From Clostridia bacterium (GTDB taxonomy: Bacteria > Bacillota > Clostridia > Oscillospirales > CAG-272): DNA of 64,000 nt. The notes beneath the pieces are model-generated. The model made no database searches, was not told the DNA's origin, and was given only the letters and a program-made list of their open reading frames with translations. The translations under genes and the position numbers were made by a program. Where the stretch lies: positions 5,901-69,900 of the forward strand of contig JAFTJB010000004.1 in the NCBI GenBank assembly GCA_017456625.1. Direction: 5' to 3'. Of this stretch, positions 15,101 through 63,737 are shown piece by piece (position 1 is the stretch's first letter; the number at the start of each line of letters is the position of its first letter).

Positions 15101-16325
15101 CAATGTTTGCCTCTGCGGCATCCGCGCGGAATTCATTGAACAGGAAGTGATCGGCAAGCTCCTTCATTCTGTTAGTCGTCAGAATTTCGGCACGTGCCGC
15201 ATCGGTCAGATAGAGACCGGGATCGCTCGCAACCTTCGCCTTGACGGTATCGAGCTCGGTTGCTATCATCGCTGCGAGTCCCGCATCGTCAACACCCAAC
15301 GCCGTCTTGAGCGCAGTAGCGTTAAAGTCTGCGAGCTCCCAATCGGTCTTGGCATTGATCCACTGCTCGATCTTTGCCATACCGTTGTCATCAAAATATG
15401 CATCGGGGTCAGCCTGGAGCATTGCGATCAGATCCGCATTGGCGGGATCGTTGAGGATCTCGTCAAGATGGATGTAGTCCACAATGTGTCTGCCGTCAGC
15501 CTCCGCACCTGCAACAAAGCCGTTGAAGTCGATATCGTCATCCTCAAACGCACTCATATCATATGCGCCGGTCACAGGATCCTTCTTCCAGTAGGAGAGG
15601 AACATATCAAGATCGTCGTCGTCCTCAATATAGTTCTCGATCGCGATATGGAATACGTTATCGTTAAACAGCGACTCACCCGTGCTCCAGAAGCCTGCGT
15701 GCGCAAGATCGTCGATGTAGATCGGGCAGTTATCGGGAATATTATCCCCATTCTTGTCCTCGCCGTCAACCGCAAGCAGCTCGTTGAGCAAGCCTGCAAG
15801 CCCCGCGCTGTCACCCTCGTAGTGGGACAGAAGGATATTGAGCGCGTCATTCTTCTTGATGATCTCCTCAAGCATTTCTCTCTCGTGGAGATTCTCGATG
15901 ATCGCACCGAAATCAAAGAATACGTCAATGCCGTCAGCTTTGCCGTCGTTGTCGGCATCGCGCTGCTCAAGCTCCTCAAGCAGTGCGGCAAGACCAATGT
16001 TATTCAGAATTGCCTCCGCAGAGACGATCTCAAGGATCTCCTCAACGGTAATAACCTCCAAAAGTGCGGCGATATCGATATTGATACCCTCAAGGATGGT
16101 CTCAACAAGCGGACTCTCCTTTTCGCCCTTCAGCAGCTCTACCAGCTTATCGGAGCTTACCTTTACGACAATGGCAGGGATCGTGCTCTCAGGATCATTG
16201 GGAGACGTCTGTGTACCTGATCCAACATCCAACCAGGGATCGGCTGCAAATGCGCTCAGCGGCAGTACCGCAAAGCTCATGATCAGCGCGAGAACCATGG
16301 CAAGAACTCTGTGAAAGATCTTCAT
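9162..16325 (-). CDS. giant (2387 aa) secreted, C-terminally membrane-anchored surface protein with Listeria-Bacteroides (Flg_new-type) repeats
   Basis: Start chosen at the ATG at 16323-16325, which gives the signal peptide MKIFHRVLAMVLALIMSFAVLPLSAFA|ADP. About 900 aa of acidic, helix-like sequence follow, with DxDxDG-type motifs (DADNDGKADG, DKNGDNIPD, NKDEDGDGVYD). Then come many beta-rich units ending in F/Y..W motifs (YAFTHWKD, YAFDAWLDKDG, VFSHWTF, YTFDAWIGYD, VTFNGWSAD, LLVGWLSGG). The C-terminus has a TM helix (VVWLWILIALVLLIAIIAILY), a second hydrophobic segment and an acidic tail. The gene has its own consensus promoter and terminator. Confidence 0.85.
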   Translation of the reverse strand: MKIFHRVLAMVLALIMSFAVLPLSAFAADPWLDVGSGTQTSPNDPESTIPAIVVKVSSDKLVELLKGEKESPLVETILEGINIDIAALLEVITVEEILEIVSAEAILNNIGLAALLEELEQRDADNDGKADGIDVFFDFGAIIENLHEREMLEEIIKKNDALNILLSHYEGDSAGLAGLLNELLAVDGEDKNGDNIPDNCPIYIDDLAHAGFWSTGESLFNDNVFHIAIENYIEDDDDLDMFLSYWKKDPVTGAYDMSAFEDDDIDFNGFVAGAEADGRHIVDYIHLDEILNDPANADLIAMLQADPDAYFDDNGMAKIEQWINAKTDWELADFNATALKTALGVDDAGLAAMIATELDTVKAKVASDPGLYLTDAARAEILTTNRMKELADHFLFNEFRADAAEANIDETRFYAYIEKEDYLHDNLDFLLLHISEYVTPEGLEHFHESIDVHHLATDGIGLETIIHTEGLANIVACLNLDKVVAAIGKDNLAQYVDLPLAIEAIGVNKLLSIINAEGKAVTDLVDMDKFVVAVDAELAALLVGQLSPEEIGVIWETETVKAAMPALQTLLLSKIPYAIDEFSIDGYVVAKEQGDTASGRLMIDINALLAAIISKIPTLEDIANLESNTLLSFDFDVKYEKLSGGNAEKLFGLQFVLDGDIETVKNAAAKANSILSKFVYYEIKPDLSVILDVKVPEQAMNYYAEIINATDLDAAEKDRLVGLLDASMDAKNFLKALTIDDLVIILKALNTDALMDKLAQIGYVNGILKEYAAATGKDVSSLTTGEILDALDEKIDEMSKKDFVHKVISIIDEKLGVDVSTVLDEAKLMENLEDIVNQDIATYRKTFNLVKSYALSAIDKINVLAPDLLTKTLDEMYQGNGKFQNAATLTKGDLNIQKLAEKLARRFYGDGPDADEMVEIIKGFFPEDYTLVANVDVTVQLENIYRVTYHDMDAKPLDTVFLPKGAKLSAYDYQPEGVLLVGWLSGGVPVKTVTGDMSVYPEIDPTVNPDYTKVYFYAEDGTTVLQSFYKKLGTYLSASDVASVVYNKPVDEGYESIWKWVQDGWALLGDDQQTLVDFATTEVVEGLAFVPVFTSGTKEYFDPVYGPVTTPVEDGYSIAIDDVFSNKDEDGDGVYDSALVTLPQNLVNEGATIVLDDDNTGIKITVSGATVEQLNSLGNGGVSFRLTPHAEFESGYYTHENAVQYTLEFLIGEDYVPYSQMTGRDKTFAEPVKIELSLDDFTPVDDIDGVQGTHVYCVDDPHNRELIATTHTNNTISFEVDHFSKYTLANEYAVYHRFISLNTGATIVGELDFMDDVHVNDDNYTYLPVGAVPFIATITSPEHYEIVRTTVAKNSYDDASKTEVNGVFTITDAPLYLTIETEFTQTYTVTFLFGLKEDGEYRYKKEYVVRYGNTIGEAIPTPDSYFKQFGETRYEYAFTHWKDESGKKYDGTANPLPNDIPITSDMTFIGKAEHVADYHKVSFYNYNGALQGQLWVKNGEKITSDMLTQIGTPSRAPESNDTIRYAFDAWLDKDGGVVDFDAISIDGTTNFKASFAASYLVTFKVNNADYKQIWIKDGEKLATNDEYLNMIKPDNQVVPEFDCYLFEKVFSHWTFSGAAYDTNTAVTAPLVLEAAYAEEYEIDVANPTIADKIDAFFEERTEDGDVWYDYVITLKGGMGTVHLPAGIGKYMAVANAEARVIIRLIDADGKTLYQPVVMNKALVQNVFAGSPTDVTVAYKKIASFTADEYNQNNAFSFMIEIKRDGVAYELASGDVLTVRVPFEWLANAYRGRTIILKNGDALELYVMSTNKKVTLANGTKVLEFCPDSLKASWIFANEYTILDGGATHADTRLPNPAPVINATISGFDSDAFYQEGDEIIVTPSGITANYNVVDLYYVNAKGETVKLTKLSDTTWKLVVPAEFVTIKASLMPKSFKVNYYAPVNGAYELVKTDLYNKHAIALDKDAVIKAHMDSMNDFVLNGSYTLPAAYTFDAWIGYDEDNLGTIDMNVYMTYTPIEYTLNVVDPEEDEVLVSVTFTVETDVLGELIIPAKKGHTVACPELATFDIATAIAEMIAAGTTETSLDAVYTPCTYSITYDETEVTVTGDAIFGNEITVEIINKEFHKAALTVVTVNGSKVTVKNGKFTMPDAAVKIDVTYTPTGNAVYYINNRPQYGAMVGDVVTFEVRFTNGYRLASISDCCTLVNTSVDGDMYVLVYSFDVEDGLHINYSIEAVAYDDKNIINGTEHQGTGAPNVGEDKVTFNGWSADILGAISFATFGIEDTATVVWLWILIALVLLIAIIAILYKLFTLGKLKNNFITRFVAWVGTGFLAICRAVAKIGLGILRIFGKKEEDYDFTEPKEEAEEEAPVEESLEEEPADEETEDNE

Positions 16326-16465
16326 AACAAAACCTCGCTTTGTTTCAAATTCTGCCCACGCAAACGGACAGTTTACATCGGATTGCGTCGGCAATTCCGT
16401 CAGCCCTACCCCCGCGGGCAGAGCATACAACCGTTTTTAGGCGCAGTGATGCCTATACATACTAT

Positions 16466-39420: not shown

Positions 39421-39454
39421 TCAATAAAACCTTTCAGGGGAAAATATAATTTAG

Positions 39455-39540
39455 ACATTGGGAGAGGAAAAACTCTTTAAGGAAGAGTTTTTCCTCTCCC
39501 ATACCCTCTCCTTTTCAGAACCTTTCAAAAAAGGGTTCGA
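39455..39540 (-). repeat. structured intercistronic element, copy 1 (GGGAGAGG...CCTCTCCC hairpin family)
   Basis: Perfect 18-bp stem gggagaggaaaaactctt/aagagtttttcctctccc (39460-39477 with 39483-39500) plus the flanking gaacc.../...ggttc hairpin. Its reverse complement aligns to 62176-62250. Confidence 0.7.
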
Positions 39541-39548
39541 AAATTTTT

Positions 39549-40379
39549 TCAAATCTCATAAAACTGTGCTCTCTCGTAATTTGCCTTATTTGGGCTGTGT
39601 AGAGAGATCATTTTTTTGCCGTCAAGGGTCTCAAAAAGCATTGCGTGACCGCCGTCAAAATCAAAATGGGGTGCGCCATGTGTCCATTGACCGTGAATAG
39701 AGTCACTTTCGGCATGAAAGATCGCATATTTCCCGCCGCGGAAGCTCGACCAGATCATTTTCGTCTTGCCGTCTCCGTCGTTGTAGAGGAAGGGACCGTC
39801 GGTGACGTAATTTTCTTTACTTGCCATTTCAACGTAGGGATTATCCGACGCGCGGAAAAGCATAAAGGGCTCACCAGCAGGCGCGGAAAGATCCTCCGTC
39901 AAGGGCATTGCCCACATCTCTCCATCGGTAACCTGTACCCATTCATGGCAAAAAACGATATACGGGGTGCCATTTTCCACCCAAAGCGTACCGTCAAGAC
40001 ATTCCCAATCCTCGGGAGTAACGGGCTTTTGAGAGATAGGCTTAAATTTTCCGTCGGGAGTATCGCAAACAAGGATCTGCGTCGCTCTGCGATGATCCTC
40101 ACTCTTGAAGCTACCGAACAGATAGTATTTTCCATTGTAAATATGAACCTCGGGTGCCCAATAATCGCGGTCTGCCCAAAATCCGATCTCAGATCCGTCA
40201 AAAATGATCTTTCCATCGTCAAAATTTTCAAGATCATAGGATTTGTAAACAGTAAAGGTGTGACCCGCGCGGAGACTTCCATACTCCAGATCGGTCGTGC
40301 CGTACATATAGTAGCAATTATGTTCTTTGTCCGTTACAATAAACGGATCTCTGATACGGATGTCCTCACGTTTCATCAT
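39549..40379 (-). CDS. glycoside hydrolase family 43-like protein
   Basis: 276 aa, no signal peptide. IRIRDPFIVTD (catalytic Asp region), YYMYGTT, YWAPEVHIYNGKYYLFGS and VTDGPFLY follow the five-bladed propeller GH43 pattern. Confidence 0.7.
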   Translation of the reverse strand: MMKREDIRIRDPFIVTDKEHNCYYMYGTTDLEYGSLRAGHTFTVYKSYDLENFDDGKIIFDGSEIGFWADRDYWAPEVHIYNGKYYLFGSFKSEDHRRATQILVCDTPDGKFKPISQKPVTPEDWECLDGTLWVENGTPYIVFCHEWVQVTDGEMWAMPLTEDLSAPAGEPFMLFRASDNPYVEMASKENYVTDGPFLYNDGDGKTKMIWSSFRGGKYAIFHAESDSIHGQWTHGAPHFDFDGGHAMLFETLDGKKMISLHSPNKANYERAQFYEI

Positions 40380-40409: not shown

Positions 40410-40448
40410 TTTTAAAATTTTCGAGGGAGGGGAAGTATCCCCTCCCTC
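40410..40448 (-). terminator. probable terminator after gyrA
   Basis: Stem gagggagggg/cccctccctc (40423-40432 with 40439-40448), followed on the minus strand by gaaaaTTTT. Confidence 0.55.
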
Positions 40449-40454
40449 AAGATT

Positions 40455-42977
40455 TTATTCTTCTACGGGTGCAGTTTCCTCTACAGATTCTTCCTCTTCG
40501 CCGTTCTCTTCATTCTCAATGTGAGCAACCACGGTGAAGTTAACGAGCTTTTGATCCTCGCCAAGTCTCATGACGATAACGCCTCCCGCACTTCTGGAGC
40601 GCTCGGGAATGCCCGCAACGGGAGTACGAATGATAACGCCGGAATCGGTGATCATCATGATGTCATCCTCATCGGTGACAGCGGCAATTCCTGTGAGAAT
40701 ACCGCTCTTTTCGGTGATGTTATAGCAGGCAACGCCTCCGCCTCCGCGGTTCTTCATCAAACGGAAGTCATCAAACGGGCTGCGCTTACCAAAGCCGTTC
40801 TCGGTAACGCAAAGCAGACGCTTGCTGTCATCGACTACACAAACACCCGCAACGTAGTCGCCGTCCTTGAGGCGGATACCGCGCACACCGCGTGCGGTTC
40901 TACCCATGACGCGTACGTTGGACTCGGAGAAGCGGATCGCTTGACCGTTTGCGGTTGCGATCATCAGATCACATTCGCCATGCGTACGGACAACGAATAC
41001 CAATTCGTCTCCCTCGTCGAGGTGAAGCGCGATCTTGCCGCCCTTACGCTGATATTCGTACTCGGAAAGAGGCGTACGCTTGATCACGCCGTTTCTCGTG
41101 ACCATGGTGAGATACTCATCATCGGTGAACGCATCCACACTAATGCAGGCAGTGATCTTCTCGCCCTCTGTCATATCCAGAATATTGACAAGATTCTGTC
41201 CCTTTGCGGTTCTGCTTGCTTCGGGAATCATATATGCCTTACGCATCTGTACCTTACCCGTATTGGTAAACATCATCAGATAAGAATGGCTGTTGACAGA
41301 AATAACCTTTTCGATAAAGTCCTCATCCTTCGTCCCCATCGCAATGATACCCTTACCGCCTCTGTGCTGTGCGGAATAGGTATCGGCAGGCTGACGCTTG
41401 ATATAACCGGCGTGCGTGAGCGTGATCACGCAGCTATGGCGCTCGATGAGATCCTCAAGAACGATCTCATGCTCCGCGGGAACGATAGCGGTTCTTCTCT
41501 CATCCGCGTACTTGTTGCGGATCGCCATCATTTCGTCCTTAATGATCTGCTTGATCTTACCCATATCGGCAAGGATCTCCTCCAGCTCCTTGATGAGATT
41601 GTGGAGACGGAGAAGCTCATCCTCGATCTTTCCTCTCTCCATGCCCGTCAGCTTACCGAGTGTCATCTCAACGATCGCCTGCGCCTGAATATCCGTCAGA
41701 CCGAAGCGCTCCATCAGCTTGAGCTTGGACTCGGGAATGGAGGGCGAGGTCTTCATGATCTGTACGATCTCGTCGATGTTATCAAGAGCGATCTTGTATC
41801 CCTCGAAAATGTGTGCTCTCGCTTTTGCCTTATCCAGATCGAACTGCGTGCGACGGATGATGACCTGCTCCTGGTGCGCGATGTAGTGGTCGAGAATGTT
41901 GGCAAGATTGAGTACCTTTGGCTCGTTGTTGACGAGAGCCAGCATATTGACTGCAAAGGTCTCCTGAAGCTGGGTATATTTATAGAGCTGATTGAGAATG
42001 ATCTGTCCGTTTGCGTCGCGGCGGTACTCTACCACAATACGCATACCGTCTCTGCCCGACTCGTCACGCAGCTCGGTAATGCCGTCGATCTTTTTTTCCT
42101 TCACACATTGCGCAATGGATTCGCAAAGCAAGCTCTTGTTGACCGCGTAGGGGATCTCGGTGAAGATGATCTTGCGCTCTTCCTCTTTGATCTCCGCCTT
42201 AGCGCGGACCATAATATGTCCCTTACCCGTGGTATACGCCTGCTTGATGCCGTTGACACCGTAAATGGTCGCATAGGTGGGGAAGTCGGGACCCTGAATA
42301 AACTGCATCAGATCATCGATGGTACATTCGGGGTTGTCCATGCGGTAGATGGTGGCATCAATGACCTCTCCGAGGTTGTGGGGAGGAATGTTGGTCGCCA
42401 TACCGACGGCAATACCCATCGATCCGTTGACAAGCAGGTTGGGGAAGCGCGACGGCAAGACCGTCGGCTCCTGCAAACGGTTATCAAAGTTCGGCATCAT
42501 CGGCACAACGTTTTTGTCAAGATCACGCATCATCTCGTCCGCAATGCGGTCCATACGCGCCTCGGTATAACGGTATGCAGCCGCGGAGTCACCGTCGACC
42601 GAACCGAAGTTACCGTGACCCTCAATAAGAGGATAGCGGAGAGTAAAGGGCTGTGCCATACGTACCATCGTTCCGTAAACGGCAGCGTCACCGTGAGGAT
42701 GGTAGCGACCGAGCACGTTACCGACGGTCGTTGCGGATTTGCGGAAGGGCTTGGAATGAACCAAGCCGTCCTCGTACATTGCGTACAGGATACGACGCTG
42801 ACCCGGCTTCATGCCGTCTCTGACGTCGGGAAGTGCACGGGACATAATGACCGACATAGAATACTCAATAAAGGATTTCTTTACCTCCTTTTCCATGCCT
42901 ACGTCCACGATCTTCTGATTTTCAAACAGCGCCAATTCCTGCTGCTTGTCAACTATTTTGTCTTTTTCGTTAGCCAC
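40455..42977 (-). CDS. gyrA: DNA gyrase subunit A
   Basis: 840 aa from a GTG start. Motifs are [36 protein letters not shown] and [11 protein letters not shown] (active-site Tyr), with a C-terminal beta-pinwheel and an acidic tail. Confidence 0.97.
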
Positions 42978-43026
42978 GGTTTTTACACCTTTCCTGTATT
43001 GTATTGAAAAATATTAATTACAAAGT

Positions 43027-43569
43027 TCATCTTTTTCCTTGGAGCCGTACACAGATCCCAAGAAGCGGGAAAAAGATGAGTGCTCCAAACAAAAGCGTTC
43101 CGAGAAGCTCGGGAAGCGCCAGGGACAAAAGAAAGCTTGAAAAATCGATCTCACGGTAGGTGAGAAGCGTATAAGCAAATGTTGTGAGAAATCTCACGCC
43201 AAGAGCGATCGCAAAGCAGATCAGATAAGAGAGATAGCCGTGCGCGTTGAGCACCTTGACGTAATATCCGATCAGATATGCCATTATAAAATAGATCAGC
43301 GGAAGAAGAGAAATACCCGTTGATGCGAGCGCATCGATGATAAATCCCGCCGCGATCCCCGTAATGGAGCCTGCATGATATCCGCAAATCAATGTCACCG
43401 TCAAGACTGCGGTAATAATCAGATCGGGAGTCACGCCAAATGGCTTTATTCTTCCCATCACCGACGTTTGTATAATTGCAAGCAAAAAGAGAGTGGTTCC
43501 TATGATCACACAGTAACGAATGATCTCCGACCTCGTTTGTGCCTGCCTGCCGAGGATATACTTTGCCAT
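43027..43569 (-). CDS. mreD: rod shape-determining protein MreD
   Basis: 180 aa with 5 TM segments. Its start overlaps the mreC stop (TAATG). Size and position are typical of MreD. Confidence 0.6.
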   Translation of the reverse strand: MAKYILGRQAQTRSEIIRYCVIIGTTLFLLAIIQTSVMGRIKPFGVTPDLIITAVLTVTLICGYHAGSITGIAAGFIIDALASTGISLLPLIYFIMAYLIGYYVKVLNAHGYLSYLICFAIALGVRFLTTFAYTLLTYREIDFSSFLLSLALPELLGTLLFGALIFFPLLGICVRLQGKR

Positions 43570-44513
43570 TATCCGTATCCTCCGTTACCGACTCCGGGAG
43601 GAACGTAATCGTCCTCCTCCTCGGTCGTCTGATCCGCAGGAGGCGTGGTTACGGGCTTTTGATAATCTCCGTTATCTCCCGTTTCATATCCCGTAATGAT
43701 CAAAACGTAGTGCAGAGCGGAAAAATCGACCGTTGGACGGACGTTTGCGACGATCGTGCGGCTGTATTCGTCCACAGTGACCTCTTCGACCACACCGATA
43801 ATCAGATCGGCAGGATAAACGCTTCCGACACCGCTGGAGAGGACGAGATCTCCGACCTTAATATCGGCACCCTCTTCGATATAGGTCATTTTGCAAAGAC
43901 CCTGTTGCTCGAGCGTATAATCACCGATCACAACGCCCATCGTACCGCTGTTTTCAATATAGGCACCGATCCCCTTGGAATCCGCGCTTTTTTCAAGAAT
44001 TGTGGACACCTTACACCATGTGAGTCCCACCTCGATGACGTATCCTACCACACCTGCCTTCACCACCACGGGCATATTGATCGATATCCCGTGCGCGGTT
44101 CCTCTGTTGAGGGTAAAAACAGTCATGTAATCGGATGCCTCGGATCCGATCACCATTGCTTCCTCGAGGAGGAAGGAGGGATATTTATCCTTCATTCCGA
44201 GGTAATCACGCAAACGCTTGTTTTCCTCCTCCAGAAGCTCCGCATAATTTTTTTCGGCTTCCAATCGGGATATTTCCTCTTCCAATTGCTCATTGCGATC
44301 GATCAGAGCTCCCTGAAGCTGAAAATGCTTGAAAAAACCGCTGACCGCATCGGTCACAACGGTAGCTCCCCAGCGAAATGGGGTCGCGATCACACCAAGC
44401 ACCTCACGCACGGGCTCTCTGTAGCCCATGAGAGAGAACGTGGTCGATACCGTGCACAAGACGAGTGCAATGCACAGGCAGATCAAAAAGAATTTATTTT
44501 GAAATACCTTCAC
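43569..44513 (-). CDS. mreC: rod shape-determining protein MreC
   Basis: N-terminal TM segment, coiled coil (LEEEISRLEAEKNYAELLEEENKRLRDYLG) and beta-barrel blocks (VVKAGVVGYVIEV, GDLVLSSGVGSVYPADLIIGVVEEV). I prefer the GTG at 44511-44513, which has AGGAG 7 nt upstream. The track start at 44627 would translate through a palindromic repeat. The ATG at 44540 is an alternative. Confidence 0.8.
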   Translation of the reverse strand: MKVFQNKFFLICLCIALVLCTVSTTFSLMGYREPVREVLGVIATPFRWGATVVTDAVSGFFKHFQLQGALIDRNEQLEEEISRLEAEKNYAELLEEENKRLRDYLGMKDKYPSFLLEEAMVIGSEASDYMTVFTLNRGTAHGISINMPVVVKAGVVGYVIEVGLTWCKVSTILEKSADSKGIGAYIENSGTMGVVIGDYTLEQQGLCKMTYIEEGADIKVGDLVLSSGVGSVYPADLIIGVVEEVTVDEYSRTIVANVRPTVDFSALHYVLIITGYETGDNGDYQKPVTTPPADQTTEEEDDYVPPGVGNGGYG

Positions 44514-44556
44514 TCCCCCACTCCTTTCATAGAAATTCATTGTTTCGGGGTTAGGA

Positions 44557-44660
44557 CCTTGGGAGAAGGAAAACTCGGTTGGATTTTTCCTTCTCCCAAA
44601 CCCATAACTCCAAAAGGGACCTTCCAAAACGCCCTCATTCGAGAGCGTTTTGGAAGACTC
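44557..44660 (-). repeat. structured intercistronic element, copy 2 (diverged)
   Basis: Two hairpins: ttgggagaaggaaaa/ttttccttctcccaa (44559-44599) and cttccaaaacgc/gcgttttggaag (44621-44656), between the gyrB stop and the mreC start. Confidence 0.6.
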
Positions 44661-44686
44661 TCCTTTTTTGAATAGGGAAATTTCTT

Positions 44687-46947
<2,261 letters not shown>

Positions 46948-46965
46948 TCCGATGCCTTTCGTTTA

Positions 46966-48078
46966 TCAGCCATTTTTCTGCGTATAGACTCCGCTCTTTA
47001 CCTCTATGAGCTTGCCTCCGACCGAGCCGTATGGCTCACAGGTCGTCATAATCACCTGTCTGTCGGTCATTTTTCCAGAAAGATACGCTCTGCGCGAGGA
47101 ATCCAGCTCCGAAAATACGTCGTCAAAGAGAAACACGGGCTTCTCTCCGCAGATCTGCGCGCATACCTCTCCCTCCGCAAGCTTCATAGCAAGTGCCAAG
47201 GAGCGTTGCTGCCCTTGGGAAGCAAACATCCGCGCGGATTTTCCGTTGAGCTTGATGTCGATATCATCCTTGTGGATCCCCCACAACGTGCTTCCCGCAC
47301 CGATCTCTCTTTCGTGATTGTTCATGAGAAGATCATAGTAGATGCGCTCGGTCTGTGCCATATCCTCATATTCCTCTGCCTCTCGGTGTGAGGAGCCCTC
47401 ATAGACTGCGGTCGGTATCTCCCGATCCCCCATCATCTCAAAGAAGCAATCACGAATGCATTCCGACGCGCGCTTCAGATAGCGTACACGGTAGGAAGCG
47501 ATCACAGCCGCTTCTCTTGCCAATTGAGAGGACCAGAATTCCACCGTGTCATTGAAGGTACGGCGATCATCCTCGGCATTTCTGATCAGTTGATTTCGTT
47601 CTTTTAATATCTGATTGTATCGTTGCAGACTTTTGAGATAGACCGGATAGAGCTGTGAGATGGCGACGTCAAGATAATTGCGGCGCTCTGCGGGTCCGTC
47701 CTTGATCAAGGAAAGATTTTCGGGACAAAACAGCACGGTGCGGAAGGTACCGACGATATCGGAAACACGTCCGACCTTTACCCCGTTAAGCTCGATCCTT
47801 TTTCTTTTTCCCTTCATCATACGGACCGTTATATTCTGTTTTCTGACGGAATCGGTGAAATCGATGGAGATCTCCGCCATTTCCGCGCCGAATCTTACCA
47901 TATCCTCGTCATGAGAGGTACGGAAGCTCTTGCCGATGGCGGCAAATCCGATCGCCTCTAAAAGATTGGTCTTTCCCTGCGCGTTTGCGCCGTGGAGAAT
48001 ATTGACTCCTTCATCAAAGGTAACGTCCGCAAATTCTATGTTGCGAAAATCGCTGACCCTGATCCTGTTACAGTACAT
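46966..48078 (-). CDS. recF: DNA replication and repair protein RecF
   Basis: 370 aa with Walker A GANAQGKTNLLEAI, the signature SQGQQRSLALAMKLAE and Walker B VFLFDDVFSELD. Confidence 0.93.
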   Translation of the reverse strand: MYCNRIRVSDFRNIEFADVTFDEGVNILHGANAQGKTNLLEAIGFAAIGKSFRTSHDEDMVRFGAEMAEISIDFTDSVRKQNITVRMMKGKRKRIELNGVKVGRVSDIVGTFRTVLFCPENLSLIKDGPAERRNYLDVAISQLYPVYLKSLQRYNQILKERNQLIRNAEDDRRTFNDTVEFWSSQLAREAAVIASYRVRYLKRASECIRDCFFEMMGDREIPTAVYEGSSHREAEEYEDMAQTERIYYDLLMNNHEREIGAGSTLWGIHKDDIDIKLNGKSARMFASQGQQRSLALAMKLAEGEVCAQICGEKPVFLFDDVFSELDSSRRAYLSGKMTDRQVIMTTCEPYGSVGGKLIEVKSGVYTQKNG

Positions 48079-48093
48079 GATTCAAACGAATGA

Positions 48094-49245
48094 TCACTCT
48101 TTCATACGAACGGGCAGGAGCATAAAGATCTCCTTGACGTTTTCCTCTGCTTCAACGGGCTCGATGTTAATACCGGTCAATGCAGACGTCATAGAAAGCT
48201 TGACGTGCTCGCAGTCCGCTGCGCGAAGGCTATCGATGAGGAAGCGGTTGTTGAAAGCGATCAGAAGATCGCCGCCCTTATGCTCGATCTCAAGCTCATC
48301 ATATGTGCTTCCCATCGTGGAGGTAGCGGAGATACGAACGGTATTCTCGCAGAACTCCAGCTTAACGTGAGATTTAACGCTTCCCGCAACCTTTTCCTCG
48401 GTAACGAGAGCGGCTCTCTCGAGTGCGGAAATCATTGCGTCGCGCGAGATCACTGCCTCAATTCTGTGAGAGTTGACAAGAATACGGTCATAGTCGATAT
48501 ACTGTCCCTCAATGAGACGGGAGAAGAAAATAAGATTGCCGATGTGGAACACGATGTTCTTGCGGCTCATATAGATGCGAACGACCTCTCTCTCATCGTC
48601 GCGAAGCATCTTGAAGAGCTCGTTGACGGTCTTGGTCGGCATAATAAAGGAATAGTCAAGCGCTGTGGCATCCTCGTTTTTGTTTTCGATCTCGGTCTCG
48701 ACCTTGCATTTTGCAAGCTTGTAGCTATCACAGGAAACAAGAAGGAGCTCCTTATCGGTTACAGAGCAATAGCATCCGTTGAGAACGGGACGCTGATCAT
48801 TGACAGCCATTGCGAACATAATCTTTGAGAGCATGTTCTTCAAGGTAGCCTGACCGATCACAAATCCATCCTCGGTGGTCAATCTCGGAATGACGGGATA
48901 ATCTGCTGCGGGGAGAGCCTTCATGCGGTGGTTGGATTTTCCGCAGGAGATGCAAGCCTGAAGTGTGTCGTCAACGGTGAGTATGATCTCGCTGCCTTCC
49001 ATTACGCGAACGGTCTGAGAAAACTTCTGTGCGTTGATAATATAGCTTCCTGCTTCCTCGACCTCTGCATCAACGGTAACACGCATACCCTTTTCCAGGT
49101 CAAAGGTCGTCAATACGCAGGAGCCGTTCTCGTTTGCCTCGATGAGGATACCCTCGATCGCGCTGAGCGTGGACTTACCGGATACCGCACACATCAGAGG
49201 AGCAACCGCGTCATTGATCACTTGTCTGTTAAAAACGATTTTCAT
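48094..49245 (-). CDS. dnaN: DNA polymerase III beta sliding clamp
   Basis: 383 aa starting MKIVFNRQVINDAVAPLMCAVSGKSTLSAIEGILIEA, the typical DnaN N-terminus, downstream of dnaA. Confidence 0.93.
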   Translation of the reverse strand: MKIVFNRQVINDAVAPLMCAVSGKSTLSAIEGILIEANENGSCVLTTFDLEKGMRVTVDAEVEEAGSYIINAQKFSQTVRVMEGSEIILTVDDTLQACISCGKSNHRMKALPAADYPVIPRLTTEDGFVIGQATLKNMLSKIMFAMAVNDQRPVLNGCYCSVTDKELLLVSCDSYKLAKCKVETEIENKNEDATALDYSFIMPTKTVNELFKMLRDDEREVVRIYMSRKNIVFHIGNLIFFSRLIEGQYIDYDRILVNSHRIEAVISRDAMISALERAALVTEEKVAGSVKSHVKLEFCENTVRISATSTMGSTYDELEIEHKGGDLLIAFNNRFLIDSLRAADCEHVKLSMTSALTGINIEPVEAEENVKEIFMLLPVRMKE

Positions 49246-49769
49246 AATTTATAATAACCTTTCGATGAATTTTTTTATTTTTCGCTCTCTCGACAAAAAA
49301 GAGAGAAAAGAAAGAATAGAAAGAATTGGTAGTAGTAATATTATTATTGTCTGTGGATTTTGTGGAAATAAAATATGTTCTTGTAATACAAGACTTTTTC
49401 AAATCAAAAAAATGAATTTAACGTAGAAAAACATATGGAAAAAAGCAGGATGTTTTGTGGAAAATCGGGCATGAGAATTTGAAAAAATAAAGATTTTCAA
49501 AAAGAAGGAGAAAAAAGATTTTCCCACAATATTTTCCACAGTATCATTCCACAGGAGAAAAAGAAAAAATAAGGAAAAATGTCGAAAAAAGAAGAATTAT
49601 CAACAGGGAAGTAAGCCATGCTGTTCCACAATGAAAAAGCTTTGAAATACAAAGAAAAAATAATATAGAATCCATGAATAATACAAGGATTATAAGAGAT
49701 TATCTGCAATGTTTTCCACAGGTGTTGAAAAGTCTGTGGAAAACTAATTTTAGATGTGGAAAATGAATT
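49246..49769. other. oriC: oriC (dnaA-dnaN intergenic DnaA-box cluster)
   Basis: Six 9-mers differ by 1 nt or less from TTATCCACA: 49456-49464, 49532-49540, 49597-49605, 49712-49720, 49735-49743 and 49755-49763. Weaker boxes lie at 49352-49360, 49361-49369, 49520-49528 and 49622-49630. An AT-rich stretch with TAGTAGTAATATTATTAT at 49330-49347 abuts the tandem boxes. Confidence 0.85.
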
Positions 49770-51176
49770 TTATCTTTCCGAGATTTCCTTTTTGAGGTGG
49801 GATATCTCCGCAGAGAAGTCAGGTGAGGAATTGATCTTGTGAACGACCGTATTGATAGAGGACATTACGGTCGTGTGATCTCTCTCGAAGATCTTTCCGA
49901 TATTGGGATAGGACATTTCGGTCATCTCACGGATAAGATAGATTGCAATGTGGCGGGAATTTGCGATCTCCTTGTTTCTCTTTTTACCGGTCAGATCCTC
50001 CTTTGTGACGTTATACTTGCGATAAATGGAGGAAAAGATCTTATCCACCGTAACGTTGATCGGCTCGGTTCCGCCGTAGATATCCGTGATGCACTTTCTT
50101 GCGACCTCCATGGAGATCGGAATGCCGGAAATGAAGCTGATCGCGGCAAGCTTTTTAATGGTTCCTTCGATCTGACGGACGTTGGAGCGGAGATTTTCTC
50201 CGAGATAGGTCATGACCTCGTTGGAAAGAGAGATATTGACCTGCTCTGCCTTTTTCTGAATGATCGCAATACGAAGCTCCAGATCCGGAGGCTCGATATC
50301 AGCCAGAAGACCCTGCTCAAATCGGGAGCGGAGGCGTTCCTCAAGCGGATTGATATCCTTTGGAGGGCGGTCAGAGGTAATGACGATCTGCTTTCTCTCC
50401 TCAAACAGTGCGTTGAAGGTATTAAAGAATTCCTCCTGGGTAGAGGTCTTTCCGGCAATGAATTGAATGTCATCGATCAAGAGCACGTCGCATTTGCGGT
50501 ATTTGTCTCTGAAATCCTCCATTGTCTTGTTGGCAAGGCAGGAGATCATCTGGTTGGTAAAGTCCTCGCACTTGGAATAAATGATCTTGACGTTTGGGTT
50601 ATTTTGCTTGAGTCTGTTGACGATCGCGCAAAGCAAATGCGTTTTTCCCAGACCGCTGTTTCCGTAAATGAAGAGAGGATTGTAGTTATTGACAGGATTA
50701 TTGGCAACGGAAAAGGATGCTGCATGAGCAAACTTATTCGTGCTGCCTACAATAAAGTTTTCAAAGGTGTATTCAAAATTGTAGCTGGGCATAATCAGAT
50801 CGTCATCCTCTGATGCGGGAGAAGAGGATGCTATGGGAGTCGGGACGGACTCCGACTTTGGAGCAGCCTTTGCCGCATCGCCTGTCATGATCAGCTCTAC
50901 CTTGATCTCGAACCCGAGAGAGAGATTGAAGGCTTTATTGATCTTGTCAAGAAATTTATCCGAAATGTGCTGAAATTTAAAAGGAGAGTCTATTCCAAGT
51001 GTCAAAACGTCCATCTCACCCGTTTCTTCCTTATCGCGGTAAGAAATGACCTTGAGAGGATCGAACCAAAGGTTAATTGCAATATCAGAAAGTGCTTCTC
51101 CGTTTTTGTCCTTAAAGGATTCCTTGACCATATTCCAAACTTGAGACATTTCATCTATGTAATTTTGGTCAGACAT
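49770..51176 (-). CDS. dnaA: chromosomal replication initiator protein DnaA
   Basis: 468 aa with AAA+ Walker A GNSGLGKTHLL, Walker B LLIDDIQF, and the domain IV motif HTTVMSSINTV. Confidence 0.97.
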   Translation of the reverse strand: MSDQNYIDEMSQVWNMVKESFKDKNGEALSDIAINLWFDPLKVISYRDKEETGEMDVLTLGIDSPFKFQHISDKFLDKINKAFNLSLGFEIKVELIMTGDAAKAAPKSESVPTPIASSSPASEDDDLIMPSYNFEYTFENFIVGSTNKFAHAASFSVANNPVNNYNPLFIYGNSGLGKTHLLCAIVNRLKQNNPNVKIIYSKCEDFTNQMISCLANKTMEDFRDKYRKCDVLLIDDIQFIAGKTSTQEEFFNTFNALFEERKQIVITSDRPPKDINPLEERLRSRFEQGLLADIEPPDLELRIAIIQKKAEQVNISLSNEVMTYLGENLRSNVRQIEGTIKKLAAISFISGIPISMEVARKCITDIYGGTEPINVTVDKIFSSIYRKYNVTKEDLTGKKRNKEIANSRHIAIYLIREMTEMSYPNIGKIFERDHTTVMSSINTVVHKINSSPDFSAEISHLKKEISER

Positions 51177-51247
51177 AAAAAATCCTCCTTTCGTTCCTAA
51201 TAAAAAACACGATATAAAAATATTATATTATTTATATTATATCATAT

Positions 51248-51265
51248 TATGCGCGCGCGCGCATA
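51248..51265. repeat. alternating (CG)6 tract inside an 18-bp perfect palindrome
   Basis: TATGCGCGCGCGCGCATA embedded in otherwise very AT-rich DNA between dnaA and copA. Confidence 0.9.
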
Positions 51266-51336
51266 GTAATATATGTTATTTAAAATAAAATTTACATTTT
51301 ATTCAAAAAAGATACTCTATTTTCAGAGTGAAAAGG

Positions 51337-51350
51337 ACTACTATAGTAGT
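51337..51350. promoter_or_regulatory. 14-bp perfect palindrome, candidate operator over the copA -10 region
   Basis: ACTACTATAGTAGT, 23 nt upstream of the copA start. It contains TATAGT (51342-51347), with TTTTCA 16 nt upstream. Confidence 0.4.
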
Positions 51351-51372
51351 TAGTGAAGAGTAACATGGAGGA

Positions 51373-53961
51373 ATGATGAAAAGATTACACTATGAGATCA
51401 AGGGAATGAGTTGTGCGGCGTGTGTTTCACATGTGGAACGAGCTATTCGCGGCGTTTTGGGAGAAGGTGAGATTTTTACGGTTTCACTTCTCACAAACTC
51501 GGTGTCGATCTTGATCAATAATGATCAAAAAGACCTTGCTTTATTAGAGAAACAGCTTGAAGAGGCAATAAAAAATTCCGGTTATACACTGCTAACTAAT
51601 AAAAAAGAGGAACAAAAAACAGGAATATCGGAGTTTGAGATTGCAAAAAGAAAGCTGATCGCCTCTGCTGCTCTGACTCTTGCAGTCATGTATCTCGCAA
51701 TGGGTGGCATGATAGGCTTACCGATTCCCGAATTTTTGGTGGGAGTGGAAAATGCAATTTGGATGGCACTGTCACAGTTGATTTTGACAGTTCCCGTTCT
51801 TGTGATCAACTTCAAATTTTTTAAAAACGGATTTTTGGCGCTTGGGCATAGGGCGCCGAACATGGATTCTCTCATAGCTGTTGGATCGGGCGCATCGGTA
51901 ATATACGGACTTGTTTCGATCGTTTTGATCCTTACTGCCAATGGAGACGGCGTGTTGGTGCATTCCTTGCTTCACGACCTTTATTTTGAGTCGGCGGCAA
52001 TGATACTCACGCTTGTATCCCTTGGTAAGCTCCTGGAATCCCGTGCAAAGGAAAAGGCGGCGGATGCGGTAAAGTCCTTGGCATCCCTGTCCCCGAAATC
52101 GGCGGCGGTACTGCGAGAAGGCATGGAGCTGTCAATCCCGGTAGAAGAAATTGTTGTAGGTGATACGGTGATCATACGCGCGGGAGAATTGATTCCCGTG
52201 GACGGAGTGATCGTAAAGGGCGAGGGAAGTGCCGATGAATCCGCGCTTACGGGTGAGAGTATGCCGGTGGAAAAAGAAGCAGGTGATGCTGTCAGAGCGG
52301 CGTGTGTATTGACCTCGGGGTATCTTGAGATCAGAGCGGAGAAGGTGGGGAGCGAAACTTCTCTATCTCGCATTATTCGACTTCTGGAGGATGCGGCGGC
52401 ATCTAAGGCACCCATCGCACGGATCGCGGATAAGGTCAGTGGGGTATTCGTTCCCGTTGTAATGGCGATTTCGCTTGTGACCTTTCTTGTATGGATGCTG
52501 GTCACAAATCATATAGAGCAAGCGTTGCGCTCTGCGATCGCCGTGCTCGTCATTTCCTGTCCCTGCGCATTGGGGCTTGCAACACCGACCGCGATTACGG
52601 TTGGAATCGGGCGTGGAGCGCGCAACGGAATTTTGTTCCGCAATGCGGAGTCGCTCGAAAAGCTTTGTTCCGTCAAGACCGTTTTGTTCGATAAAACGGG
52701 AACCATCACGGAGGGAAAGCCCTCTTTAACAGATCTGTACGCATACGGAACAGATCCCGTAAAGCTGCTGCAATACGCGGCGGCTGTGGAAAAGCAATCC
52801 TCGCATCCTTTGGCTCTTGCGGTGGTAAGAGGAGCGGAGGAAATGAAGCTGGAGATCCCCACAGCGAGCGAATTTCGTTCTATGACGGGTGTGGGAGCCG
52901 AGGCAGAGGTATGCGGTGCTGTTTGCCGTATCGGTAAGCCCTCTGCAGAGGAGCGCGCCGCGTGGACGGTAAAAGAATATAAAAAAGAAGAAAAAAATAA
53001 ATCCGTAAATGTGATAGCACGCGAGGATCTTGAGATGATCGGAACGGATTTTGACAGTCTGGAAGAGGAAGGAAAGACCGCTGTTTTGGTCACGGTAGAC
53101 GGAAAAGCGGTCGGTGTTTTGGGAATTTCGGACCGTATTCGTGAGGATTCTCCTGCCGCGGTAGAGGCGCTTCGGAGTGAGGGTGTATCTTGTGTCATGC
53201 TCACGGGAGACAATGAACGCACGGCTGCATCGGTAGCCCGCCGCGTAGGGCTTGACGGATATCGCGCGGGGCTTTTGCCCGAGGATAAGGAGCAGATCGT
53301 AAGACAGATCGGTGAAGGCTCGTCTTGCGCGATGGTAGGAGACGGAATCAACGACGCGCCCGCGCTCGTGCGCGCGGACGTGGGAATTGCCGTTGGAGCA
53401 GGCACGGAGGTTGCGATCGACTGTGCGGGGGTTGTGCTCTCGGGCTCGTCGCTGTCGGGAGTTGCCGAGGCGTATCGCTTGAGCCGCGCGACCATACGTA
53501 TCATCAAGCAAAATCTGTTTTGGGCACTGTTTTATAACGCGGTATGCATTCCCGTTGCGGCGGGCGCTCTTTATCCGCTCTTTGGATGGCAATTGAGCCC
53601 AATGCTTGCATCTGCCGCAATGAGCTTCTCGTCGGTCTGCGTGGTCACAAACGCATTGAGACTGCGAACGGTAAAGCTGTTTTATTCAAATCGAAAACAA
53701 AATACAGAAGGAGACAATGAAGAAATGATGTTTGGAAAAAAGGAAGTTTATTCGATCCCTGTTGAGGGAATGATGTGCCCCCGTTGCGTGGCACACGTCA
53801 AGGAGGCTCTTGAGGCGATCAAGGGTGTGAAGGAGGTCGAGGTCAGCCTCGAGGAGAAAAAAGCGGTCGTAACCGTTAAGGAGGGCGCGGTTACCCCCGC
53901 GACGATCATCTCCGCCATTCAGACTGCGGGATACACCCCCGGTGAAGCAGAAAAAATTTAA
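51373..53961 (+). CDS. copA: copper-translocating P1B-type ATPase with N- and C-terminal HMA domains
   Basis: 862 aa with an N-terminal HMA domain (GMSCAACVSHVE), TGES, the TM CPC motif (SCPCALGLATP), DKTGTIT, GDGINDAP, and a second HMA domain at the C-terminus (GMMCPRCVAHVKEALE). Confidence 0.93.
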   Translation: MMKRLHYEIKGMSCAACVSHVERAIRGVLGEGEIFTVSLLTNSVSILINNDQKDLALLEKQLEEAIKNSGYTLLTNKKEEQKTGISEFEIAKRKLIASAALTLAVMYLAMGGMIGLPIPEFLVGVENAIWMALSQLILTVPVLVINFKFFKNGFLALGHRAPNMDSLIAVGSGASVIYGLVSIVLILTANGDGVLVHSLLHDLYFESAAMILTLVSLGKLLESRAKEKAADAVKSLASLSPKSAAVLREGMELSIPVEEIVVGDTVIIRAGELIPVDGVIVKGEGSADESALTGESMPVEKEAGDAVRAACVLTSGYLEIRAEKVGSETSLSRIIRLLEDAAASKAPIARIADKVSGVFVPVVMAISLVTFLVWMLVTNHIEQALRSAIAVLVISCPCALGLATPTAITVGIGRGARNGILFRNAESLEKLCSVKTVLFDKTGTITEGKPSLTDLYAYGTDPVKLLQYAAAVEKQSSHPLALAVVRGAEEMKLEIPTASEFRSMTGVGAEAEVCGAVCRIGKPSAEERAAWTVKEYKKEEKNKSVNVIAREDLEMIGTDFDSLEEEGKTAVLVTVDGKAVGVLGISDRIREDSPAAVEALRSEGVSCVMLTGDNERTAASVARRVGLDGYRAGLLPEDKEQIVRQIGEGSSCAMVGDGINDAPALVRADVGIAVGAGTEVAIDCAGVVLSGSSLSGVAEAYRLSRATIRIIKQNLFWALFYNAVCIPVAAGALYPLFGWQLSPMLASAAMSFSSVCVVTNALRLRTVKLFYSNRKQNTEGDNEEMMFGKKEVYSIPVEGMMCPRCVAHVKEALEAIKGVKEVEVSLEEKKAVVTVKEGAVTPATIISAIQTAGYTPGEAEKI

Positions 53962-62121: not shown

Positions 62122-62250
62122 TCCACTCTCCACGAGAGTGGTTTCCCAAAGCGTCCTGATGATCATGGACGCTTTGGGAAAGGTTCTGAAGGGGAGAGGG
62201 TTTGGGAGAGGGAAAACTCTTCCTTAAAGAGTTTTCCCTCTCCCAAGGTC
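62122..62250 (+). repeat. structured intercistronic element, copy 3 (three stem-loops)
   Basis: Three stems: ccactctc/gagagtgg (62122-62140), tcccaaagcgtcc/gacgctttggga (62144-62178), and a perfect 18-bp stem gggagagggaaaactctt/aagagttttccctctccc (62204-62244). Confidence 0.7.
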
Positions 62251-62297
62251 TTTCCTTTTGGAAACGATCCCAAATAAACATAGAAGGACAGAAAGAA

Positions 62298-63737
62298 ATG
62301 AAAAAGATTTTATTTGTAGGAGCAGAGGCAATGCCCTTTGCAGCCACGGGCGGACTCGGAGACGTTATGGGCTCTCTTCCCGCAGCACTTGCCGAGACGG
62401 GAGACACCGACGTACGCGTCGTTATGCCTCTGTATGCGGCGGTATCGCAGGAGTGGCGCGCGCAAATGAAGCAGGAAGCGGTATTCTACGTTCGTCTTGC
62501 ATGGCGTGAGCAGTACTGCGGCGTGTTCAGCCTACAGAAGTCGGGTGTTACGTATTACTTTATTGATAACGAATACTATTTCGGCAGACCGACTCTGTAC
62601 GGTCATCACGACGACGGTGAGAGATATGCGTATTTCTGCATGGCGGTCATGGAGATGCTGGCGCGCTTGGATTATTATCCCGACGTTCTGCATGCGCACG
62701 ATTGGCAGGCGGCTTTGAGCGTTGTTTATCTCAACTGCATCTACCGCAACCGCGCGGGCTATGAGAAAATTCAGACCGCATTCACCATTCACAACATCGA
62801 GTATCAGGGCATATATGATTTCGCGATCCTCGGAGACGTGTTCTCTCTTGGTGAGAACGAGCATTCTCTTATGGAGCACAGCGGCTGCATCAACCTGATG
62901 AAGGCGGCTGTCGAGTGCGCTGACCGTGTAACCACCGTCAGCCCCCGTTACGCAGAGGAGATCCGTACCGCGGAGTTCGCGCACGGACTTTCCGCATGCC
63001 TGTGCAACAACGCCGGCAAGCTTTGCGGTATTCTCAACGGCATCGACTACGTCTACTACGATCCCAAGAAGGATAAGGCGATCCCCGCAAATTTCTCGTC
63101 TCGCAGCATGGCGGGCAAGGCAGCTTGCAAAAAGGCGCTCCAGGAGGAGACGGGGCTTCCCGTTCGCGAGGACGTTCCCATGCTCTCTATCATCTCCCGT
63201 CTGGCTTCCCATAAGGGACTTGACATCGTAGAGGGCGCGATCGGTCGCTTGGTAGAGGAGAACGACATTCAGCTCGTGATCCTTGGCAAGGGCGAGGCTC
63301 GTTACGAGAGCTTCTTTACCGATCTGCAGGCACGCTTCCCCGATAAGGTGCGCGCGCTCATCACCTATGACCGCGATCTTTCCAAGCGCATTTATGCCGC
63401 AACCGATATCTTCCTCATGCCCTCCAAGAGCGAGCCCTGCGGACTGTCGCAAATGATCGCATCCCGCTACGGCGCGATCCCCGTTGTTCGCGAGACCGGC
63501 GGACTTTACGACTCGATCAAGCCGTTCTGGATGGATAAGAAGACCATGCGTGGCAACGGCTTTACCTTTGCGGACTACTCCGCAGACGTTCTGGCTCGTG
63601 TGACCGAATCCGCGATCGCACTTTACCGTGATCCCGTGCTCTGCAAGAAGCTTGTGAGCAAGATCATGAGAACCGATTTTTCCTGGAAGGCATCCGCAAC
63701 CCAATACATCGCTCTTTATGAGGGCATGCTTTCCTGA
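62298..63737 (+). CDS. glgA: glycogen synthase
   Basis: Start set at the ATG at 62298 (GAAGGA RBS), giving MKKILFVGAEAMPFAATGGLGDVMGSLP, the canonical GlgA N-terminus. The track start at 62202 would translate through the palindromic repeat. Confidence 0.93.
   Translation: MKKILFVGAEAMPFAATGGLGDVMGSLPAALAETGDTDVRVVMPLYAAVSQEWRAQMKQEAVFYVRLAWREQYCGVFSLQKSGVTYYFIDNEYYFGRPTLYGHHDDGERYAYFCMAVMEMLARLDYYPDVLHAHDWQAALSVVYLNCIYRNRAGYEKIQTAFTIHNIEYQGIYDFAILGDVFSLGENEHSLMEHSGCINLMKAAVECADRVTTVSPRYAEEIRTAEFAHGLSACLCNNAGKLCGILNGIDYVYYDPKKDKAIPANFSSRSMAGKAACKKALQEETGLPVREDVPMLSIISRLASHKGLDIVEGAIGRLVEENDIQLVILGKGEARYESFFTDLQARFPDKVRALITYDRDLSKRIYAATDIFLMPSKSEPCGLSQMIASRYGAIPVVRETGGLYDSIKPFWMDKKTMRGNGFTFADYSADVLARVTESAIALYRDPVLCKKLVSKIMRTDFSWKASATQYIALYEGMLS

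Follow-up and report, generated by a model that had tools for sequence, protein, structure and literature searches.

A modular hairpin between glgD and glgA as a probable copy of an apparently undescribed family of dispersed intergenic palindromic repeats in gut Clostridia

In the present study, the spacer between glgD and glgA was analysed in a stretch of 64,000 nucleotides (the window), in which Pfam places plus-strand glgB, glgC, glgD and glgA at 57.6-63.7 kb. From the stop codon of glgD (62085) to the ATG of glgA (62298) the spacer measures about 212-215 nt and holds three adjacent hairpins, designated hp0, hp1 and hp2 (Table 1), as many stem-loops as a sequence-only reading of this DNA had placed there. 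Its predicted folding energy is -98.7 kcal/mol, with z = -8.4 against shuffles. The last stem-loop had been given at 62204-62244 as a perfect stem of 18 pairs with a 5-nt loop; the perfection and the loop were borne out, but the stem has 20 pairs and extends over 62202-62246. In hp1 the base of the stem is conserved and the apical part is variable. The linker GGTTCTGAAGGGGAGAGGGT contains G-tracts together with a second copy of the arm motif GGGAGAGGG, and directly 3' of hp2 the sequence continues as GGTCTTTCC. A similar tag stands after each hairpin, AAGGTTCT after hp1 and AAGGTCTT after hp2 (62175-62190, 62245-62254), and in copy C of the structure both tags read AAGGTCC (44607-44615, 44550-44558). 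This recurrence suggests a repeat unit composed of a hairpin plus its tag.

Table 1. Positions of the hairpin modules, related copies and the downstream gene in the window
Feature	Position	Strand	Description
hp0 module, copy A	62123..62141	+	small hairpin CCACTCTC-CAC-GAGAGTGG
hp1 module, copy A	62142..62181	+	TTTCCCAAAGCGTCC-loop-GGACGCTTTGGGAAA, 15 bp
linker, copy A, between hp1 and hp2	62182..62201	+	purine-rich, Shine-Dalgarno-like GGTTCTGAAGGGGAGAGGGT
hp2 module, copy A	62202..62246	+	TTGGGAGAGGGAAAACTCTT-CCTTA-AAGAGTTTTCCCTCTCCCAA, 20 perfect bp, 5-nt loop; covariance-model score 79.6 bits
3' tag, copy A	62247..62256	+	GGTCTTTCCT; family consensus from alignments AAGGTCTT
glgA	62298..63737	+	true start ATG 62298; RBS AGAAGGAC about 10 nt upstream
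copy B, GH43 > lipoprotein gene	39449..39531	-	linker, hp2 39459-39501 (19 bp), tag; covariance-model score 73 bits
copy C, gyrB > mreC	44543..44660	-	hp1 44621-44656, hp2 44559-44599, tag AAGGTCC; covariance-model score 56.8 bits
short related hairpin right after gyrA stop	40421..40450		TCGAGGGAGGGGA-AGTA-TCCCCTCCCTCAA; covariance-model score 17.7 bits

The structure recurs elsewhere in the window. The reverse complement of 39453-39531 (copy B) aligns with 62173-62251 over 79 nt at 90% identity, which agrees with the match of 39455-39540 to 62176-62250 described previously, and the lone stem difference between the two copies is indeed a compensatory G-C / A-T pair (columns 40/74). The third copy, announced at 44557-44660, also proved to be real. 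The claim that a shorter hairpin precedes the long one in every copy holds for A and C, but copy B has hp1 cut down to its 3' half. The distance from the end of hp2 to the next start codon was measured as 51, 38 and 45 nt in copies A, B and C, in line with the about 40-55 nt estimated before. In addition, the weak hairpin behind gyrA has an orthologue in the related locus L087 (13659-13726) that forms a fuller, canonical unit in antisense orientation. The core pattern gave 6 matches (3 palindromic sites on both strands) where 0.71 were expected, and none of 100 shuffles reached 6.

A covariance model (R1) was built from the window copies and from matches in other genomes. It returned three strong matches and one weak match in the window, and three more in the 7.3 kb of the same contig past the window end: one degenerate composite in sense orientation between glgP and an amylase gene (site D), and two copies of opposite orientation downstream of a serA-like gene. 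The total is 6-7 copies within the 71 kb of the source genome surveyed, 100% of them extragenic, in gene contexts as unrelated as the glg operon, gyrB/mreC, a lipoprotein gene and serA/DUF1934. The covariance-model search, which had been advised as a check, also located members of the family in six related Clostridia assemblies. The repeats are points at which metagenome assemblies break: the contig of the window stops 27 nt past its last copy (L017 19029-19056), the contig L075 of a relative (1-25) begins 25 nt before glgA, and L080-L082 end 40-160 nt after glgD.

The core unit of the family is hp2, whose 5' arm is GA-rich and 3' arm CT-rich, with the linker before it and the tag after it. 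Conservation is seen in the basal stem TTTGGGAGA...TCTCCCAA, in the purine-rich linker on the 5' side and in the AAGGTCTT tag on the 3' side; the apical stem varies yet pairs. Ahead of hp2 there are often hp1 (TTTCCCAAAG...CTTTGGGAAA) and hp0 (CCACTCTC...GAGAGTGG) in a fixed order. The order hp0-hp1-hp2 is repeated at three independent sites in two genomes, and in L087 hp0 lies directly upstream of hp1 at 9421-9435 and 14020-14036. The size of hp2 is 39-51 nt with 17-20 paired positions, and that of hp1 is 28-58 nt.

Covariation, the second check that had been proposed, was examined in 16 clearly homologous copies of hp2, over their basal 17 pairs and with the arms extracted by hand in register. 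In this sample 94.9% of the cells were paired, and double-sided (compensatory) changes were found in 11 of the 17 pairs (28 cells). None of 500 shuffles matched any of the hp2 pairing measures, and controls with slid partners were paired at 43-68%. The stem thus appears to vary in a compensatory manner, on evidence that we regard as good but no formal proof, as the kinship of the sequences inflates the shuffle control. Since the stem changes are compensated, the hairpin itself seems to be the thing preserved. Within hp2 the wobble counts are balanced, with 11 G.T (G.U) against 10 A.C; hence the strand asymmetry of wobbles was dropped as a means to discriminate RNA from DNA, because 11 versus 10 cannot tell the two levels apart.

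Comparison with the relatives allowed the history of four sites to be followed. At site A (glgD-glgA) the element is present in the window, in L019 (identical) and in L076, where hp1 has compensatory changes (GCATCG/CGATGC) and hp2 has three G.U pairs; L018, L077, L079 and L083 have other hairpins instead. At site B, which precedes the lipoprotein gene, hp0, hp1 and hp2 are all found in L087, whereas L085 has a short remnant GAGAGGG-GTCT-CCCTCTC-AAGGTCTTTCC and L088 a 24-nt junction. At site C (gyrB-mreC) the element is present in L086 and L087 (full hp0-hp1-hp2), reduced to a short remnant in L085, and in L088 there is a 4-nt junction. Site D is degenerate on the window contig, occupied in L075, a full composite in L079, a variant in L018 and absent in L077. 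The distant relative L088, with its element-free 4-nt gyrB-mreC and 24-nt gyrA-lipoprotein junctions, has a family member elsewhere, and these tight junctions indicate that the elements were inserted at those sites. In the closer relatives, elements at orthologous sites were retained, shortened or replaced. The hp2 region of site B is 91.6% identical between L087 and copy B of the window, including a compensated change of a basal pair from T-A to C-G, whereas the adjoining spacer is 40% identical and the third-codon (synonymous) positions of the flanking genes 52-63%. Conservation so far above that of synonymous sites is better explained by a selected function than by selfish DNA alone. So the elements were inserted into tight junctions and then inherited, either conserved well above the neutral level or decaying. 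Beside copy B, the GH43 gene (39549-40379, minus strand) is intact in the window, is represented in L085 by a 66-aa N-terminal remnant (13572-13772), and is absent at this position in L087 and L088; the neighbouring copy B is the one without the 5' half of hp1.

No convincing target-site duplication or terminal inverted repeats were found at hp2 or at the composite. The empty sites of L088 differ over the entire spacer, therefore no insertion boundary can be read from them, and the AAGGTYCT that follows both hairpins is part of the unit and not a target-site duplication. No transposase Pfam family was found among the called genes of the L017, L077, L079, L085, L087 and L088 loci. RAYT genes are present as one copy per genome. 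We infer mobility from the distribution of the copies alone.

The family extends outside the Clostridia. When one genome per species was scanned for the pattern, 16 loci were obtained: 12 came from four Treponema MAGs and 2 from a 'Mailhella' MAG, and the other 2 were unrelated hairpins. The 'Mailhella' MAG has at least 3 copies on short contigs with AT-rich flanks; these contigs may be mis-binned, and the taxonomic labels are used as given in the records. The Treponema and window copies have GAGGGTTTGGGAGAGGGAAAAC and GTTTTCCCTCTCCCAAG exactly in common (22 + 17 identical nt), and their apical stems differ in sequence and are paired in both. The linker is conserved in the Clostridia, Treponema and 'Mailhella' copies, except in T11 and T13 of Treponema, which are entirely without the G-rich linker. 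The Treponema copies adjoin housekeeping genes (aroA, a class-I tRNA synthetase gene, gltB, lepB), and their modules are shuffled and joined with other small hairpins in varying order.

The sequence had not been recognised as a named family, and the Rfam check agrees. Rfam 15 gave 0 matches at the gathering threshold for the window and six related loci; below it there was only generic miRNA-hairpin noise, with mir-3156 as the best match (36 bits against a threshold of 76). Neither a scan of viral contigs nor blastn against plasmids and phages gave a match in the phage, plasmid and viral collections, and an exact-sequence search of the literature retrieved no paper with the element. The family is apparently undescribed and belongs to a lineage of uncultured gut Clostridia, with close copies in gut Treponema. 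Dispersed hairpin repeats have been described in detail for Proteobacteria and streptococci; to our knowledge, there are hardly any such descriptions for uncultured gut Clostridia or Treponema. All matches of a metagenome pattern scan (55/55 loci) were rejected, as they belong to a different, Ktedonobacteria-like long-palindrome family of soil whose sole overlap is the purine-rich core demanded by the pattern. This unrelated multi-copy palindrome of soil metagenomes and a Ktedonobacteraceae MAG (L001, L020-L074) has the form CACGATnnTTTGTGA-TGGGAGAAGAAAAAA..TTTTTTCTTCTCCCA-TCACAAAnnATCGTG; its middle segment covaries, and its outer ends come in two alternative forms. The Clostridia relatives also contain a second family of hairpin repeats, namely GTRGGGAACTTTTT..AAAAAGTTCCCYAC followed by ACCCCTCAAAAACTT (L079 12513-12575, L083 1671-1723, L086 about 790-840); it often lies directly 3' of stop codons, and its flank is like the 5' flank of the 'Mailhella' copies.

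Among the known systems, the REP/BIME sequences are multi-copy extragenic palindromes of Enterobacteria and Pseudomonas (Di Nocera et al. 2013, PMC3733652; Nunvar et al. 2010, PMC2817692; REPINs, PMC3116915). A REP is defined as an imperfect palindrome of 20-40 bp with an unpaired GTAG or CGTC tag at one end (PMC3733652), and exceeds 100 copies per genome. The present elements resemble them in being extragenic and multi-copy, in lying between unidirectional or convergent genes, in being co-transcribed, in forming mosaics with other motifs and in having an unpaired conserved tag beside the hairpin; roles in mRNA stabilisation have been proposed as well. However, the hairpins found here are longer (43-51 nt, 18-20 bp), the tag is AAGGTCTT at hp2 or AAGGTTCT at hp1 with no GTAG or CGTC at either hairpin foot, and the elements occur in Clostridia and Treponema instead of Proteobacteria. 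Furthermore, the mosaic is an ordered series hp0-hp1-linker-hp2-tag of three different hairpins, in contrast to the inverted REP pairs of a BIME, in which REPs alternate in orientation with conserved linker motifs between them. Because it has neither the size nor the tag of a REP, the element was not filed as one, and the terminal inverted repeats with target-site duplication that distinguish a MITE were not seen at hp2 or the composite. The BOX, RUP and SPRITE repeats of pneumococcus (Croucher et al. 2011, PMC3049150) are alike in their Firmicute host, fixed-order sub-units, strong predicted structure, intergenic position and co-transcription; this resemblance is one of kind only, the families being set side by side by description. 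BOX is Streptococcus-specific, and RUP, a MITE of IS origin, has terminal inverted repeats, none of which were found in the present element. Repeated intergenic foldable sequences have also been catalogued as stem-loop sequence families across bacterial genomes (Petrillo et al. 2006, PMC1590033; Cozzuto et al. 2008, PMC2267715). Those surveys dealt with isolate genomes, unlike the uncultured gut MAGs studied here. Integron attC sites, CRISPR and retrons were dropped as candidates, as the copies are flanked by core housekeeping genes, and neither an integrase nor a cas or RT gene was among the called or examined neighbours.

The multi-copy modular spread outside genes, the insertion into unrelated core operons, the turnover, the assembly breaks and the occurrence in two phyla point to a repeat of the REP/BIME/BOX kind and not to a glg-specific regulator or terminator. 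Our main reading, to which we give a probability of roughly 60%, is that the structure between glgD and glgA belongs, as one of many copies, to a modular family of palindromic repeats dispersed over intergenic regions (REP/BIME- or BOX-like) that is co-transcribed in operons and acts most likely as an mRNA stability or processing hairpin. The sequence-only reading had raised two alternatives, a REP/BIME-like repeat or an element of RNA processing, stability or translation control, and the former is the better one. The units were inserted at formerly tight gene junctions in an ancestor of the Clostridia clade, possibly through a hairpin-recognising transposase, and later kept, shortened or replaced. 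Within the glgBCDAP mRNA the element would be co-transcribed and most likely serve as a determinant of stability or processing. Its hairpins may shield the upstream glgBCD segment from 3'-to-5' exonucleases, the Shine-Dalgarno-like linker and hp2 may shape a structured 5' region of the glgA segment, and the downstream genes would each retain their own RBS, 37-52 nt beyond hp2. Among the 5' mRNA stabilisers of Firmicutes are the cryIIIA STAB-SD element and stem-loops at the 5' end that form a barrier to RNase J1, all of them single-locus leader elements. The present element is similar in placing a Shine-Dalgarno-like purine run (GAAAAGGAGAGGG) by a stable hairpin upstream of a cistron, and differs in being a dispersed repeat. 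Such an effect on mRNA is suggested by the anatomy of the element and by analogy with REP and the Firmicute stabilisers. Strong conservation as at site B, together with the preserved pairing and the bias to sense orientation, would be compatible with an RNA-level role that was adopted later.

A more far-reaching form of this idea, which we consider unlikely and offer as a speculation, is that the element is more than selfish DNA: a selected transcribed module, made up of the hairpin and a decoy Shine-Dalgarno linker, has spread horizontally among co-resident gut Clostridia and Treponema and sets the processing and differential stability of cistrons in core operons (glgBCD versus glgA; gyrB versus mreCD-gyrA). 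It might be mobilised by an HUH-type enzyme that recognises hairpin and tag. The family shows hairpin repeats colonising core operons near the replication origin, persisting at orthologous sites across species and occurring in near-identical form in two phyla of one habitat, a pattern with a bearing on their spread and on co-option by the host.

The alternative that survives best is a purpose-built, non-mobile cis-regulatory RNA motif, in which the hairpin, the Shine-Dalgarno-like linker and the AAGGUCUU tag would be read by a trans factor (RNase, RNA-binding protein or 30S subunit), the motif being multi-copy since many operons use it; we consider it rather unlikely. Orthologous copies do last across species, and at site B they do so while synonymous sites are near saturation; the compensatory changes, with the basal T-A to C-G swap, are also what such a motif predicts, as is the constant spacing of 37-52 nt between hp2 and the following start codon. 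With the flanks included, folding is better for the canonical strand than for its complement, a gain that comes largely from the G-rich and U-rich flanks. Orientation has to be considered here. That the copies lie between co-directional genes and are uniformly in sense orientation had been claimed, and it is true for A, B and C (glgD>glgA; GH43>lipoprotein; gyrB>mreC), but it is not general: of the five co-directional sites in Clostridia four are sense (A-D) and one, the gyrA-downstream unit that is clear in L087, is antisense, and convergent regions contain several copies, which follow terminators. In Treponema the orientation is mixed, and the four copies that adjoin Pfam-verified genes are sense. 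Orientation calls in Treponema and 'Mailhella' from the longest ORF were discarded as too noisy at 55% GC; Pfam verified five flanking genes only. The sense orientation of four in five co-directional sites is a hint of a role at the RNA level. However, the oriC region lies within the window, so that for copies A-D sense coincides with the leading strand and the two effects are inseparable; two copies beyond the window end are oriented against replication. Besides the antisense and convergent copies, the flanking genes have no functional theme, Treponema combines the modules in shuffled form, close relatives lose or replace the elements while retaining the operon, and the G.U and A.C counts in the stem are balanced, all of which speak against a purpose-built motif.

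The oriC region itself occupies 40455-51400, with dnaA (49770-51176), dnaN, recF, gyrB, mreC, mreD and gyrA all on the minus strand. The sign of the GC skew switches at about 49-51 kb, and a cluster of AT-rich repeats and palindromes lies at 51197-51300. The placement of mreCD between gyrB and gyrA is kept in L085, L087 and L088. Elsewhere in the window, 9162-16430 contains a very long pair of opposite-strand ORFs of 2422 aa (minus) and 2386 aa (plus).

It is improbable that the element acts at the DNA level, as a cruciform, a G-quadruplex site or a site bound by a nucleoid or topoisomerase protein, in the manner of REP/BIME in E. coli. The perfect palindrome of hp2, the 4-5 G-tracts of the linker and 5' arm (GGGAAAGGGTGAGGGTTTGGGAGAGGG in Treponema copies) and the grouping of window copies near oriC and the gyrase genes would suit such an element. 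The G-tract pattern is nevertheless weak in copies B and C, the Treponema loci T11 and T13 do without the G-rich linker, and the clustering at oriC is seen on one contig.

A partial intrinsic terminator or attenuator that reduces read-through from glgD into glgA is slightly more doubtful still. The hp2 hairpin is very stable, and the GGUCUU tag is conserved. The absence of a U-tract after the long hairpin, noted from the sequence, is confirmed for copies B and C, but in copy A the tail (GGTCTTTCCTTTT, GGUCUUUCCUUUU) contains enough U for a lenient terminator scan to flag it. A GC-rich stem with an immediate U-tract, as in an intrinsic terminator, was not found: there are 5 T in 8 in copy A and 2-4 T in copies B, C and D, which have AAUGUCUAAA, AAGGUCCUAA and AAGGUCUUAU right after the stem. 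By contrast, the hairpin census shows the ordinary terminators of this contig as a separate class with an A-tract, a stem and a clear T-tract (T5-7). A 20-bp stem with Us interrupted by C is atypical of intrinsic terminators, and the elements are situated inside essential conserved operons (gyrB-mreCD-gyrA) with no promoter-like site downstream.

A coding role, either as an N-terminal extension of GlgA from the TTG at 62202 or as a small leader peptide, is hardly tenable and was rejected: although an in-frame ORF runs from 62202 into glgA and an ATG (copy B) or TTG (copy A) lies 5 nt downstream of the Shine-Dalgarno-like linker, the Pfam Glyco_transf_5 (starch-synthase) domain begins at residue 3 of the protein that starts at 62298, this ATG and its RBS are conserved in L018, L076 and L079, and relatives keep them below unrelated upstream sequence, so the ORF from 62202 is not a real extension. 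In addition, the hairpins of the copies differ in length by 4, 6 and 8 nt, hence no reading frame is conserved. Translation of the extended ORF had been named as an outcome that would overturn the structural reading, and the domain position and the conserved start argue against it. A covariance model of the family would improve the annotation of these genomes, in which the repeats break metagenome assemblies and mislead gene callers; GlgA is called as 468, 479 or 519 aa, depending on the assembly.
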